A model generated the notes under the pieces. It saw only the letters and a program-made list of their open reading frames with translations. It was not told where the DNA came from and searched no databases. A program made the position numbers and the translations under genes. This document shows, piece by piece, positions 2,420 through 11,848 of a stretch of 64,000 nucleotides of DNA. This DNA comes from Thermoanaerobaculia bacterium (lineage in GTDB: Bacteria; Acidobacteriota; Thermoanaerobaculia; Multivoradales; UBA5704), in assembly GCA_035544895.1 (NCBI GenBank), contig DASZZM010000026.1, positions 35,914 to 99,913 of the forward strand, read 5' to 3'. Within the stretch, counting starts at the first letter, position 1. Every line of letters starts with the position of its first letter.

Positions 2420-2466
2420 TGGTGCGGCTGGGAGGACTCGAATCCACGACCAAGAGTTTATGAAAC
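2420..2466. repeat. Left copy of a 47-bp direct repeat derived from a tRNA 3' half (att-like).
   Basis: tggtgcggctgGGAGGACTCGAAtCCaCGACCAAGAGTTTAtGAAAC. It matches 11802..11848 at about 41 of 47 positions and diverges immediately outside. Confidence 0.65.
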
Positions 2467-2494
2467 TGTTGGTAGTGATGCTATCGTCTACCGC
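2420..2494 (-). tRNA. Degenerate tRNA-Met(CAT)-like sequence of 75 nt. Probably a pseudo-tRNA that forms the attL end of an integrated island.
   Basis: The reverse complement ends in ...GGATTCGAGTCCTCCCAGCCGCACCA, i.e. T-loop TTCGAGT, acceptor 3' strand CAGCCGC, discriminator A and CCA. The 5' end GCGGTAG pairs 6/7 with that acceptor strand. The anticodon loop TTCATAA carries a CAT anticodon. The D-arm lacks the GG dinucleotide and the T-stem has mismatches (A at position 53), hence degenerate. Confidence 0.4.
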
Positions 2495-2536
2495 TCTGCT
2501 CATTGACACCACTAAGTATATTTCGAATTAACAGCA

Positions 2537-3046
2537 GTGTCACGGAAACGCGAAGGCCAGCACCCCTTCTTCATGAGGGCCTCGCACGGGTATGGCGAAA
2601 GGGCGGTCATGAACCAGCATGAGAAGAAACAGGTGTGCTTGACCGGGAAGCAGGATCAAATGCGGCGAGAGCTGGAGTCGCTGCTGCTGGAGCTGCCCCG
2701 GGCCGCCTGCCGGTCGCGGGATGTCGCGGCGGTTCTCGAATTCATCCACGCTCATGCGTTCGATTCAGGTCTTAACGTCGGCACGGTCAAGCAAGGTTGC
2801 CGGATCAAGGACAACAACATCTCCACACGGTTCCGGATCGCCGTGGGCCTCGGGATCCGCGAATACATCGAGGTATTGCGTCTCTCTTTCGCCTCGCGGC
2901 TCCTCCGAGGCAAACGCTTCGAGGTCTACCTGATAGCCATGGCGGTGGGATATGAGCATCAGGAGACCTTCTGCCGCGCCTTCCGCCGCCATTTTGGCTG
3001 CCCTCCTTCCAGCCTCATTGAAAGCAGAAGAAGCGTCAAGAGCTGA
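2537..3046 (+). CDS. AraC-family transcriptional regulator (small, HTH domain only).
   Basis: The C-terminal ~100 aa shows the two-HTH AraC signature: ...GLNVGTVKQGCRIKDNNISTRFRIAVGLGIREYIEVLRLSFASRLL...YLIAMAVGYEHQETFCRAFRRHFGCPPSSL. Local GC is lower than the surrounding DNA. Confidence 0.7.
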   Translation: MSRKREGQHPFFMRASHGYGERAVMNQHEKKQVCLTGKQDQMRRELESLLLELPRAACRSRDVAAVLEFIHAHAFDSGLNVGTVKQGCRIKDNNISTRFRIAVGLGIREYIEVLRLSFASRLLRGKRFEVYLIAMAVGYEHQETFCRAFRRHFGCPPSSLIESRRSVKS

Positions 3047-3154
3047 CGTCAAGAAGCTTGCTCAAGGTTTTCGGTCAAGGTGGTGCGTCAAGAGCAGGTA
3101 TCAAGAGGCTTGATCAAGCTCCCGCGCGGTACCTGTTCTTAAGATACTCGTGTC

Positions 3155-10526: not shown

Positions 10527-10625
10527 GGATTCCGACGTGAAGGCGGCCACCATTCCGGAGTGAAGGCGGCCACCATTCCGGAGTGAAGGCGGCCACCGTT
10601 TCCGACGCGAAGGCGGCCACTTTTT
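10527..10625. repeat. Array of ~4.5 tandem copies of a 23-bp unit (TGAAGGCGGCCACCATTCCGGAG), followed at 10636-10671 by two copies of a partially inverted motif (GGAAGGGTGGCCG).
   Basis: Direct reading: two identical copies at 10538-10560 and 10561-10583, then degenerating copies at 10584-10606 and 10607-10625. The array lies in the ~740-bp gap between the secreted-protein gene and the DUF3631 gene. There are no spacer-like unique segments, so it is not CRISPR. Confidence 0.7.
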
Positions 10626-10745
10626 GATGGTCGTCGGAAGGGTGGCCGGCATCGATCGGAAGGGTGGCCGCTTTCCGGTCGGAACGAATGACGAGTTGGG
10701 CTCCGACGCTGTGGCATCCTCGTCCTTCACGACGAAGGGAGGGCA

Positions 10746-11786
10746 ATGCCGGCACGGAGACTCAGCATGAGGAGAGTTCAGGAGGTGTTGCGGTTGCTTC
10801 TGGTTTGCGGTTTGAGCCAGCGGCAAGCCACGTCTTCGTCTACTGCGGTAACAACTTCGGCTGCAAGTTCAATCCTTGGGACGGAGCGATTGACTTCAAC
10901 GTCACCGTGGGAGCGGCGCGGCCGTGAGATCCTCGAAGAGCTGGAGACGGCCGCCGGCGCGCTGCCGGTGCGGGAAGGATCGAACGAGCAGGCATTAGGC
11001 GCCACAGAAGCAGGCTCATCAGGGCGCACCGTCGCCGACTCGCCCGCGGACCCCGTGGAAGCCACGCTGTCGGCCCTTGGTGCCGCTGCCGACGCCAGGG
11101 CAGCCGAGCCCCACCTTCGCCAGCTCGGGAAGGCCCTGCGGGTCTCAGACGCTCTCCAGCGGGCAACGGTGCGTGAACGTGCGATCTTGGCTCTTGGCGA
11201 CAAGGTGAACGCTCCGGCGCACCTGGTGGACGCGGCTCTCACTCCATGCCGGCCGGCGTCACCAGGACAGGGCCAAGCGGTAGGCTTCGAGGACCCGGAG
11301 CCATGGCCTGATCCTGTGGACGGCGCAGCACTTCTTCTGGACCTGGCCGCCGTGCTCAAGCGCTACGTGGCGCTTCCAGCTCATGCCGACGTTGCAGCCG
11401 CCTTGTGGAGCATCCACGCCCACGCGCTCGCCGCCGCCGACACCTCGCCCATCCTGTCGTTGATCTCACCCGAGAAGCGATGCGGAAAGACACGGACCCT
11501 GTTGGTGCTCAGCCGCCTGGTCCCGCGGCCTCTCTCAACCTCCAACATCACCCCCGCCGCTGTCTTCCGTTCCATCGAGGTTTTCTCACCGACGTTGCTG
11601 ATCGATGAGGCGGAGACCTTTCTAGGCGAGCGCGAGGAGCTACGCGGCGTGCTCAACAGCGGCCACAGCCGGGATGCAGCATTTGTCGTGCGGACGACGG
11701 GGGATGACCATGAGCCCCGCCGCTTCTCGACTTGGGCGGCGCCCTGCTTACCCGTGAGCGACCAGCGAGAGCGACACGGAGGCTAA
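10746..11786 (+). CDS. DUF3631-family protein, associated with mobile elements and primases. Apparently C-terminally truncated at the island boundary, with an IS21-IstA-like first 20 residues.
   Basis: The core ...SPILSLISPEKRCGKTRTLLVLSRLVPRPLSTSNITPAAVFRSIEVFSPTLLIDEAETFLGEREELRGVLNSGHSRDAAFVVRTTGDD matches the conserved DUF3631 block. The N-terminus MRRVQEVLRLLLVCGLSQRQ resembles IS21 transposase N-termini. The ORF stops at 11786, 15 bp before the tRNA-derived repeat. Confidence 0.55.
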   Translation: MPARRLSMRRVQEVLRLLLVCGLSQRQATSSSTAVTTSAASSILGTERLTSTSPWERRGREILEELETAAGALPVREGSNEQALGATEAGSSGRTVADSPADPVEATLSALGAAADARAAEPHLRQLGKALRVSDALQRATVRERAILALGDKVNAPAHLVDAALTPCRPASPGQGQAVGFEDPEPWPDPVDGAALLLDLAAVLKRYVALPAHADVAAALWSIHAHALAAADTSPILSLISPEKRCGKTRTLLVLSRLVPRPLSTSNITPAAVFRSIEVFSPTLLIDEAETFLGEREELRGVLNSGHSRDAAFVVRTTGDDHEPRRFSTWAAPCLPVSDQRERHGG

Positions 11787-11801
11787 AGCATTGAATCTAA
11801 T

Positions 11802-11848
11802 GGTGCAGATGGGAGGACTCGAACCCCCGACCAAGAGTTTAGGAAACA
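11802..11848. repeat. Right copy of the 47-bp tRNA-3'-half direct repeat (att-like).
   Basis: tggtgcagatGGGAGGACTCGAAcCCcCGACCAAGAGTTTAgGAAAC. The reverse complement has a canonical T-arm (GGGGG-TTCGAGT-CCTCC), an acceptor 3' strand and CCA. No complementary 5' acceptor strand lies upstream, so this is a 3' fragment only. Its anticodon-loop position reads CCT. Confidence 0.6.

Follow-up and report, generated by a model that had tools for sequence, protein, structure and literature searches.

Genomic islands that target transfer RNA (tRNA) genes through tyrosine integrases of the P4 or lambda type are bounded by direct repeats of the 3' part of the tRNA, have their crossover in the anticodon loop, carry cargo of atypical composition and decay by loss of the integrase. 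Without its tRNA-Leu site, the integrative element ICEBs1 becomes trapped at secondary sites, from which it excises poorly. The actinomycete integrative and conjugative elements (AICEs) of the pMEA300 type integrate in the 3' ends of tRNA genes, though remnants of tRNA genes can serve as targets too and elements may stand in tandem at tRNA-Arg, with multiple attL sites; their replication initiator RepAM corresponds to DUF3631 (Ghinet et al. 2011, PMC3218068). Here we compare with these systems a stretch of 64,000 nucleotides (nt), hereafter the window, from contig DASZZM010000026.1 of a Thermoanaerobaculia (Acidobacteriota) metagenome-assembled genome (MAG), in which two tRNA-derived direct repeats enclose positions 2401-11847. 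We read this interval as one immobilised, possibly composite island, with the repeats as its two ends and a peptide gene cassette carried between them; we put the probability of this reading, which is the most economical one and is moderately supported, at about 0.55. It is highly probable that the repeats themselves are attachment (att) scars of a RepAM/tyrosine-integrase family targeting tRNA-Arg(CCT).

As in the tRNA-targeting islands, the repeats in the window extend from the anticodon loop to CCA and a short trailer, the crossover is in the anticodon loop and the integrase has been lost; the presumed cargo is atypical in composition, but equally so in the relatives checked, in which it has no flanking att repeats. 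Unlike these islands, the interval possesses neither an integrase nor an intact tRNA gene, and one of its ends is joined to non-tRNA DNA. The family is also similar to the pMEA300-type AICEs in combining a RepAM gene with a tyrosine integrase and in integrating at tRNA 3' ends (PMC3218068), but its host is a Thermoanaerobaculia MAG and not an actinomycete, and the RepAM homolog in the window is an N-terminal half with no PF12307 match, hence a truncated relative and not a functional member. The locus resembles secondary-site-trapped ICEBs1 in that one joint links a tRNA-like core to unrelated DNA at the microhomology GTTTC and in being immobile and decayed; however, its second junction keeps the full tRNA 3' part, unlike a simple secondary-site insertion. 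It also differs from two intact relatives described below (L001 and L003) in the opposite orientation of its surviving element gene. The locus is thus an ordinary dead genomic island, or att scar, of a known kind; it represents no new system and leaves the understanding of such elements unchanged.

The terminal repeats and their source tRNA

The two repeats and the sequence next to the left one are as follows:

2401-2466, minus strand: left repeat (O_L); the final 47 nt of tRNA-Arg(CCT), from the anticodon loop through CCA, occupy 2420-2466, and the trailer ATAGAATCAATGATTTAGC occupies 2401-2419
11782-11847, minus strand: right repeat (O_R); 11801-11847 are the last 47 nt of tRNA-Arg(CCT), and 11782-11800 are the trailer TTAGATTCAATGCTTTAGC
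2467-2494, minus strand: sequence 5' of the left repeat; weak tRNA-like match only; may be the element-side (P) arm of an att site

Both repeats are 66 nt long and lie on the minus strand, with 58 of 66 positions identical (42/47 in the tRNA part and 16/19 in the trailer past CCA), and outside these 66 nt the identity is at random level on either side. The copies have in common their orientation and two boundaries, one in the anticodon loop and the other 19 nt beyond CCA. A preliminary description of this DNA, made from its letters alone, had noticed two 47-bp repeats that it took for the anticodon-loop-to-CCA portion of a tRNA. The repeats are real, and they are indeed the reverse complements of a tRNA 3' part, but they are longer than described and the right 47-mer begins and ends one base further left than had been given. 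The same description allowed that they might be unrelated low-complexity matches. We regard the odds of a chance or low-complexity match as negligible and this explanation as excluded, because the 66-mer was matched at no more than 34/66 positions when the window was shuffled 100 times with its dinucleotides preserved, and because both copies match a real tRNA consensus.

The repeat junctions are also real in a second, independent data set. In run SRR12277192, Logan contigs match the window at 100% identity and have breaks at 2413 (the start of contig L084) and at 11818 (the start of L088), in each case 30 nt ahead of the first deviation of that repeat from the canonical tRNA-Arg(CCT)-type sequence. 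We infer that a k = 31 graph would branch at these points, provided that the sample contains other sequences of the tRNA-Arg(CCT) type; the location of any intact tRNA gene is not indicated by the breaks. An intact tRNA-Arg(CCT) gene is expected elsewhere in the genome, since the ORFs counted contain 72 AGG codons.

The source of the repeats was traced by a scan of metagenome contigs for the pattern of T arm and acceptor that the two copies share, which returned 80 loci. In 66 of these the pattern lies inside a tRNA-Arg(CCT) gene of near-invariant sequence (GCGGCTGTAGCTCAGGTGGAAAGAGCAGGAGTTTCCTAAACTCTTGGTCGGGGGTTCGAGTCCTCCCAGCCGCACCA). The left copy matches this consensus at 44 of 47 positions and the right copy at 45 of 47, with different private substitutions. 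One of the three substitutions in the left copy turns the anticodon CCT into CAT, and the other two each break a T-stem pair, while the right copy has an intact T arm and two substitutions, both in the acceptor strand. The CAT triplet at the anticodon position is also found in another att fragment, L125. As judged from these matches, both copies descend from tRNA-Arg(CCT) and not from tRNA-Met as first proposed, and the apparent 'Met' anticodon stems from one base change in a copy that is dead. For annotation this means that a 'tRNA-Met pseudogene' becomes a 'tRNA-Arg(CCT)-derived att scar'.

The left copy had furthermore been placed inside a full-length, degenerate tRNA-Met-like gene. If this were the original tRNA gene, the island would lie next to it and the right copy would be a displaced 3' fragment. 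In favor of such an origin are a weak full-length match to the Rfam tRNA model (2423-2494; 15.9 bits), the possibility of forming 6 of 7 acceptor pairs, and the CAT triplet itself. However, the score is far below the threshold of 29 bits (E = 1.3), Rfam at the gathering threshold gave no match in the window, and ARAGORN found 0 tRNAs over the whole 64 kb. The 3' part is that of tRNA-Arg(CCT) with one substitution at the anticodon, which L125 shares, two T-stem pairs are broken, and the 5' side (2467-2494) bears no resemblance to the 5' half of tRNA-Arg. Moreover, the assignment is geometrically inverted, because for a tRNA on the minus strand the whole gene is due at the high-coordinate end and the fragment at the low one; an element in the 3' end of such a tRNA would lie at lower coordinates, outside the interval. 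A degenerate tRNA-Met gene therefore seems very unlikely, and the claim of a full-length tRNA-like gene is not upheld. At the right copy the tRNA 5' half is absent and no tRNA was called. We also considered the 5' side of the left copy as the P arm of an element, but its likeness to the arm at locus L089 (GATAG..CTACCAACA) and to other att-fragment P arms was not significant (p ~0.07 against shuffles).

Intact relatives and the element family

Two contigs show what an intact element of this kind looks like. The 11.2-kb element in L003 is arranged in the order whole tRNA-Phe, small genes, DUF3631 gene, cargo, tyrosine integrase and a 71-nt copy of the tRNA-Phe 3' part (90% identical); its cargo includes defence-type genes and its integrase is composed of Arm-DNA-bind_3 and Phage_integrase. 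Contig L001 starts and finishes in one and the same tRNA 3' end; its genes comprise those for an HTH_17 protein and DUF3631, cargo, and an integrase of the type found in L003. In both, CCA is followed by a trailer resembling AATAGAATCA...TTAG, as in the two window copies. Among the 80 metagenome loci, ten have a tRNA-Arg(CCT) 3' end without a detectable whole tRNA, and seven of them extend far enough upstream to show that the homology to the tRNA sets in at the anticodon loop, at the position also seen in the window. One of these loci, L089, has an adjacent integrase that is 49-51% identical to those of L001 and L003. On the side of O_R, the homology of the element arm with other loci extends back to ~11757, and the trailer and arm are homologous to the DNA that directly follows whole tRNA-Arg(CCT) genes in L147 (71 nt, 93%) and L096 (92 nt, 83%). 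Since the layout of L001 and L003, the ten loci without a whole tRNA and the literature on RepAM agree, the repeats are best understood as att sequences of a tRNA-targeting element family, and the proposal that they represent an integrase att core is supported by the same architecture in L001 and L003.

The trailer has the form of a motif (~WTAGAATCA-N5-TTAS) that follows CCA at att sites on different tRNAs, namely Phe, an Arg(ACG)-like end and Arg(CCT). It is found in L003 at 4938-4969 and 16161-16189, in L001 at 29-52, and just after tRNA-Arg(CCT) in L093, L096, L113, L114, L119 and L147.

The family encodes a replication initiator of the RepAM/DUF3631 type, a tyrosine integrase and an HTH_17 protein resembling an excisionase, and its mechanism is the standard one. 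Its attP carries a copy of the tRNA from the anticodon loop to CCA together with a trailer of ~20 nt, and the integrase recombines this copy with the 3' part of the tRNA at the anticodon loop, so that the copied segment, here from tRNA-Arg(CCT), comes to flank the insert on either side as a direct repeat. Replication of the excised circle is presumably the task of RepAM. The family looks integrative and possibly mobilisable but not conjugative, because no FtsK/SpoIIIE-type transfer gene was found among the window open reading frames (ORFs) scanned or in the precomputed Pfam annotation of the L001 and L003 genes. Small RepAM(DUF3631)/tyrosine-integrase elements occur outside Actinobacteria, in Acidobacteriota, where their targets are tRNA-Arg(CCT), tRNA-Phe and other tRNAs. 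Scans of viral contigs with the tRNA pattern, and with DUF3631 both as a single protein and as a profile, gave nothing or four loci without tRNA or integrase.

Element debris beside the right repeat

Recognisable element-derived sequence in the window is confined to ~1.85 kb (10004-11847) adjoining the right repeat, with the homology itself within 10261-11800. It consists of three features:

10261-10422, plus strand: gene remnant; 54 aa from the C terminus of a hypothetical protein (97 aa) encoded inside L003
10506-10700, no strand assigned: iteron- or arm-site-like array; ~6 copies of TTCCGnnGnGAAGGCGGCCAC, period 23 nt, non-coding, upstream of the DUF3631 remnant
10995-11741, plus strand: truncated RepAM/DUF3631-family gene; mechanical ORF 10746-11786; N-terminal half of a 529-aa relative

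When the window was searched by tblastn with every protein of L001 and L003, only two matches were obtained, half of the DUF3631 gene and the 54-aa piece. Together with the array these lie in 10004-11847, and hence all recognisable debris is placed there. The DUF3631 remnant shows homology to residues 13-249 of the 529-aa relative (at 11031-11741), is 89% identical at the nucleotide level to L001 1694-2405 (blastn), and ends 41 nt before the right repeat. Full-length homologs of ORF 10746-11786 are mostly 500-600 aa long, and most among those listed carry PF12307; in the window the C-terminal half including this domain is gone, and the remnant itself has no Pfam, NCBIfam or PHROG match. The right copy therefore does abut a truncated DUF3631 gene, as had been noticed from the sequence. 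The smaller remnant matches L003 12966-13127 with 84.6% identity over 162 nt (blastn) and 78% over 54 aa (tblastn). Elsewhere in the debris, ~1 kb after 10003 is without a credible gene, and PHROG and NCBIfam searches with the debris ORFs were empty. Recognition of the block accounts for the truncated gene and allows 10004-11847 to be annotated as non-functional debris.

The array was delimited in part by Tandem Repeats Finder (10506-10620, period 23, 4 copies at 89%), and the repeats found close to the two ends of L001 (TTCCCGGGGAAGC...) are similar to its first unit. These L001 repeats may be arm-type sites, and the array in the window may represent either iterons for RepAM or arm-type sites for the integrase. 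The Logan contig L084, which comes from the same organism, ends within the array.

No Phage_integrase domain was detected by Pfam in the nine ORFs scanned between 2537 and 14529, and tblastn with the L001 and L003 proteins gave nothing credible as a trace of an integrase or excisionase even at E <= 10; the earlier statement that no integrase remains thus holds. Loss of the integrase, of the excisionase and of half of RepAM would have occurred by deletion, and both tRNA copies carry substitutions that presumably no working tRNA would tolerate. Because of these losses the island can no longer excise or replicate. In the arrangement that we propose, the right repeat would be the end whose trailer arm faces inward, followed by ~1.85 kb of wreckage, the left repeat would be the distal end, and the cassette would be cargo of the island or a module that became fixed inside it. 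Both repeats would then stem from one insertion; this, the role of the cassette as cargo and the order of events are inferred, while the repeats, their origin from tRNA-Arg, the family architecture in relatives, the truncations and the place of the joint are shown directly. Of the original view of the interval as a decaying integrative element, we retain the att scars, the truncated DUF3631 gene and the missing integrase, but not its source tRNA, its left tRNA gene or its argument from GC content, and most of the interval is in fact the cassette.

Junctions and flanking genes

The flanks of the interval contain the following features:

455-1, minus strand: start of an ADOP-like permease gene; runs off the window
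496-1554, minus strand: YncE-like beta-propeller gene; left flank; widely conserved in Thermoanaerobaculia
1726-2307, minus strand: possible small secreted-protein ORF between the propeller gene and the left repeat
11848-11889, minus strand: spacer X, 42 nt, from the M20 stop codon to the right repeat; non-tRNA, with a GGCGG..CCGCC hairpin
11890-13533, minus strand: M20/M25/M40-family peptidase (Pfam), 547 aa with signal peptide; right flank; chromosomal, with orthologs across Thermoanaerobaculia

Alignments of the M20 peptidase with its orthologs (up to 68-69% aa identity) come within 3 residues of the C terminus. Downstream of the M20 gene, spacer X meets the right repeat at the anticodon loop, where the minus strand reads GCTGTTTC/CTAAAC with the slash at the joint. 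The closest relative available, L211, is a contig of 4.9 kb that stems from another sample and matches window 1-1601 at 95.3% identity. Its positions 3725-3806 are 80.7% identical to window 11924-11843 (~83 nt, comprising X and the last M20 codons), and this homology ends at GCTGTTTC (GTTTC); the window then continues with CTAAACTC, which is tRNA, and L211 with unrelated AT-rich DNA (the L211 site is GCTGTTTCTCTG). Since the spacer of L211 departs at the same base, the junction of X and O_R is a recombination joint at the anticodon-loop crossover, with a 5-nt overlap. The right repeat meets non-tRNA DNA at the crossover point, and the insertion was therefore not into an intact tRNA at this position. 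As far as the sequence tells, no whole tRNA gene stood there, and the right repeat would have been joined to the DNA downstream of M20 either by recombination at a secondary or remnant site or by rearrangement afterwards.

In L211 the last ~10-19 M20 codons and the X-like spacer (3642-3806) are situated 80 nt after the ADOP-like permease. This arrangement raises the question of whether the inserted or duplicated unit is larger than the interval. Beginning at the right repeat and running towards lower coordinates, it would take in the cassette, the left repeat, the propeller gene and the permease, and would end outside the window at another copy of the M20 3' end and X. If the window genome is collinear with L211, a direct repeat of 83 nt could bracket ~14 kb including both tRNA-derived repeats. 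Such a composite block with bracketing repeats of ~83 nt might have been generated by Campbell-type recombination of a circle with captured host DNA, or by an attP bearing a copy of the M20 3' end. It would explain why L211, so close to window 1-1601, has an M20 end (...ERLAGDWAGS and stop) and an X-like spacer ending at GCTGTTTC just past the permease; this stretch is taken as paralogous and not orthologous to the one in the window, because it is only 81% identical to window 11843-11924. We nevertheless consider the larger block improbable. It relies on one 4.9-kb contig from another sample and on assumed collinearity past the window edge, the propeller gene is chromosomal and conserved across the class, and no recombinase is present. 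A more speculative scenario, to which we give little credence, is that the junctions record a change of target: an element with an attP resembling tRNA-Arg(CCT) would have recombined at a non-tRNA site after M20 and might then have carried off a host copy (the 83-nt M20 3' end and X seen in L211), which would create a hybrid attP of new specificity while the Cys-rich-peptide cassette moved between Thermoanaerobaculia genomes.

The left flank was searched for an empty site through homologs of the propeller gene (L211-L213 and L136); L212 and L213 keep the synteny on the downstream side, whereas upstream of the gene nothing is shared, and tRNA pieces are lacking. L211 offers just the X-like spacer without the tRNA piece, in another context. 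A second decayed element to the left of 2401 was considered and rejected, as no family matches and no homology to element proteins were found there and the region has a plausible secreted-protein ORF.

The peptide cassette and the extent of the proposed island

About 80% of the interval is occupied by a conserved cassette of six genes, recognised from Pfam, NCBIfam and relatives:

2537-10003, plus strand: conserved six-gene peptide cassette, ~7.5 kb
2537-3046, plus strand: AraC-type regulator
3155-5599, plus strand: ADOP/MacB-type duplicated permease
5653-5760, plus strand: 35-aa Cys-rich peptide
5832-7073, plus strand: M50-like 'peptide zinc metalloprotease'
7070-9064, plus strand: TPR protein
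9080-10003, plus strand: hypothetical protein, 307 aa

The same six genes in the same order, with 69-78% nucleotide identity, are found on five contigs representing four other contexts (L085, L086, L087, L209 and L210). The homology begins at the regulator gene and ends within ~40 nt of the last stop codon (at 10005 in L085 and L086; the alignment of the divergent L210 ends earlier), and the neighbours differ in each relative. As its genomic context is different in every one of them, the cassette behaves like a transferable unit, which suggests that it is a horizontally mobile module, a point of relevance to any work on the peptide locus. It is probably either cargo of the element or an adjacent module that was acquired horizontally.

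The GC content is 0.656 in 2537-10003 and 0.655 in 10004-11847, against 0.69 in the left flank, 0.70 in 11848-25000 and 0.709 in the whole window. Moreover, arginine codons of the AGR type (AGA and AGG) make up 29 of 199 (14.6%) in the cassette and 58 of 1207 (4.8%) in the other genes of the window (chi-square ~28). The interval had been called visibly less GC-rich; the dip is real, but it is small (0.656 against ~0.70), marginal, and a property of the cassette. In the three relatives that were checked, the cassette likewise has a GC content of 0.62-0.64 compared with 0.68-0.75 in flanks of >1 kb, and because these relatives lack the repeats, the dip belongs to the cassette.

The main rival to one island is that the interval holds two separate or tandem scars. 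The element debris would then be limited to ~10004-11847, the cassette would be resident or independent, and the left repeat would be a leftover junction of a tandem or earlier related integration. Such an origin fits the occurrence of the cassette without repeats in its four other contexts and the restriction of recognisable element homology to 10261-11800. It also fits the left copy, whose non-tRNA 5' side and trailer are reminiscent of an internal junction in a tandem array, and tandem arrays with multiple attL sites at tRNA-Arg are known for RepAM-type elements (PMC3218068). We still regard two scars as doubtful, if possible, because no recognisable debris lies left of the left repeat, where 1555-2400 holds the plausible secreted-protein ORF and then the conserved propeller gene follows, because the copies share both boundaries like an attL/attR pair, and because the cassette is compositionally foreign and never found in a conserved context.

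Several observations weigh against a single island. A complete tRNA gene, expected at one end of a tRNA-integrated island, is found at neither end. The att pieces and the DUF3631 gene are on one strand in L001 and L003 but on opposite strands in the window; as the strands oppose each other and the DUF3631 gene is cut 41 nt from the trailer, at least an inversion with deletions, or else two different elements, are needed, and the conflict in orientation fits two events. The available flanks (1-5 kb) of the cassette in its four other contexts have no tRNA pieces, integrase or DUF3631, its low GC content recurs in the three relatives where no att repeats are present, and nothing ties the cassette to this element specifically. 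The trailer motif, for its part, occurs as well behind tRNA-Arg(CCT) genes beyond which no element genes can be recognised (L093, which has a nonribosomal peptide synthetase (NRPS)/halogenase cluster, and L147). It is therefore no proof of an element origin at the left copy, and it may be either the remaining arm of an element or a feature of the host. Finally, no empty site was recovered through the right flank, as M20 relatives at 80 loci or genomes (best 68-69%) share no neighbours or synteny with the window, and relatives close enough for synteny are absent from the searched collections. The preliminary description had stated that a related genome with the same gene block but no flanking repeats would speak against its island; the cassette does occur in this form, on five contigs, but none of them shares the flanks of the window.

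Two of these contigs offered further candidates that were set aside. In L087 the cassette is flanked by direct repeats of 76 nt (3476-3550 and 11231-11306; 87% identical), which consist of a GC-rich hairpin and a T run as in a terminator and are probably a dispersed terminator or REP-type element, not att sites. In L210 the cassette lies directly beside an M20 peptidase gene, as would an empty site, but that peptidase is only 30% identical and is a paralog.

Other observations in and around the window

The peptide ORF (5653-5760) reads MKRFYAREVETLKTTAAFYG followed by CDPTNCCNYQCCTDG. Homologs are present in L086 (3309-3461), L087 (6862-6969) and L209 (~4130-4250), in which the leader MKRF.AREVETLKTTAA.YG is kept and the Cys-rich cores differ, and the ORF always stands between the ADOP/MacB-type permease and the M50-like protease. 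From its sequence and surroundings the peptide looks like a leader-plus-variable-core precursor with its own protease, TPR protein and exporter.

In eight Thermoanaerobaculia relatives (L006, L009, L012, L013, L017, L022, L027 and L031) a tRNA-Pro(CGG) gene is situated ~100-270 bp upstream of the M20 ortholog. The window has no tRNA-Pro(CGG) upstream of M20 (13534-13590), where an SDR gene is found instead. Over the 80 M20 loci, tRNA-Pro(CGG) was counted upstream of M20 in nine relatives, and a tRNA downstream of it in none.

In contig L136 (3468-10095) the propeller gene is 82.5% identical at the nucleotide level, and a whole tRNA-Arg(CCT) gene is located 5.5 kb away. Between them are a HerA-like ATPase and unknown genes, with no integrase among the ORFs scanned. 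This may represent another variable region at the same tRNA, though the propeller gene is oppositely oriented compared with the window.

Further to the right, 25965-53617 contains two very large ORFs with internal repeats of ~3.4 kb and motifs of the adenylation-, condensation- and carrier-domain types, by which it is identified as a multi-module NRPS cluster, 14 kb from the interval.

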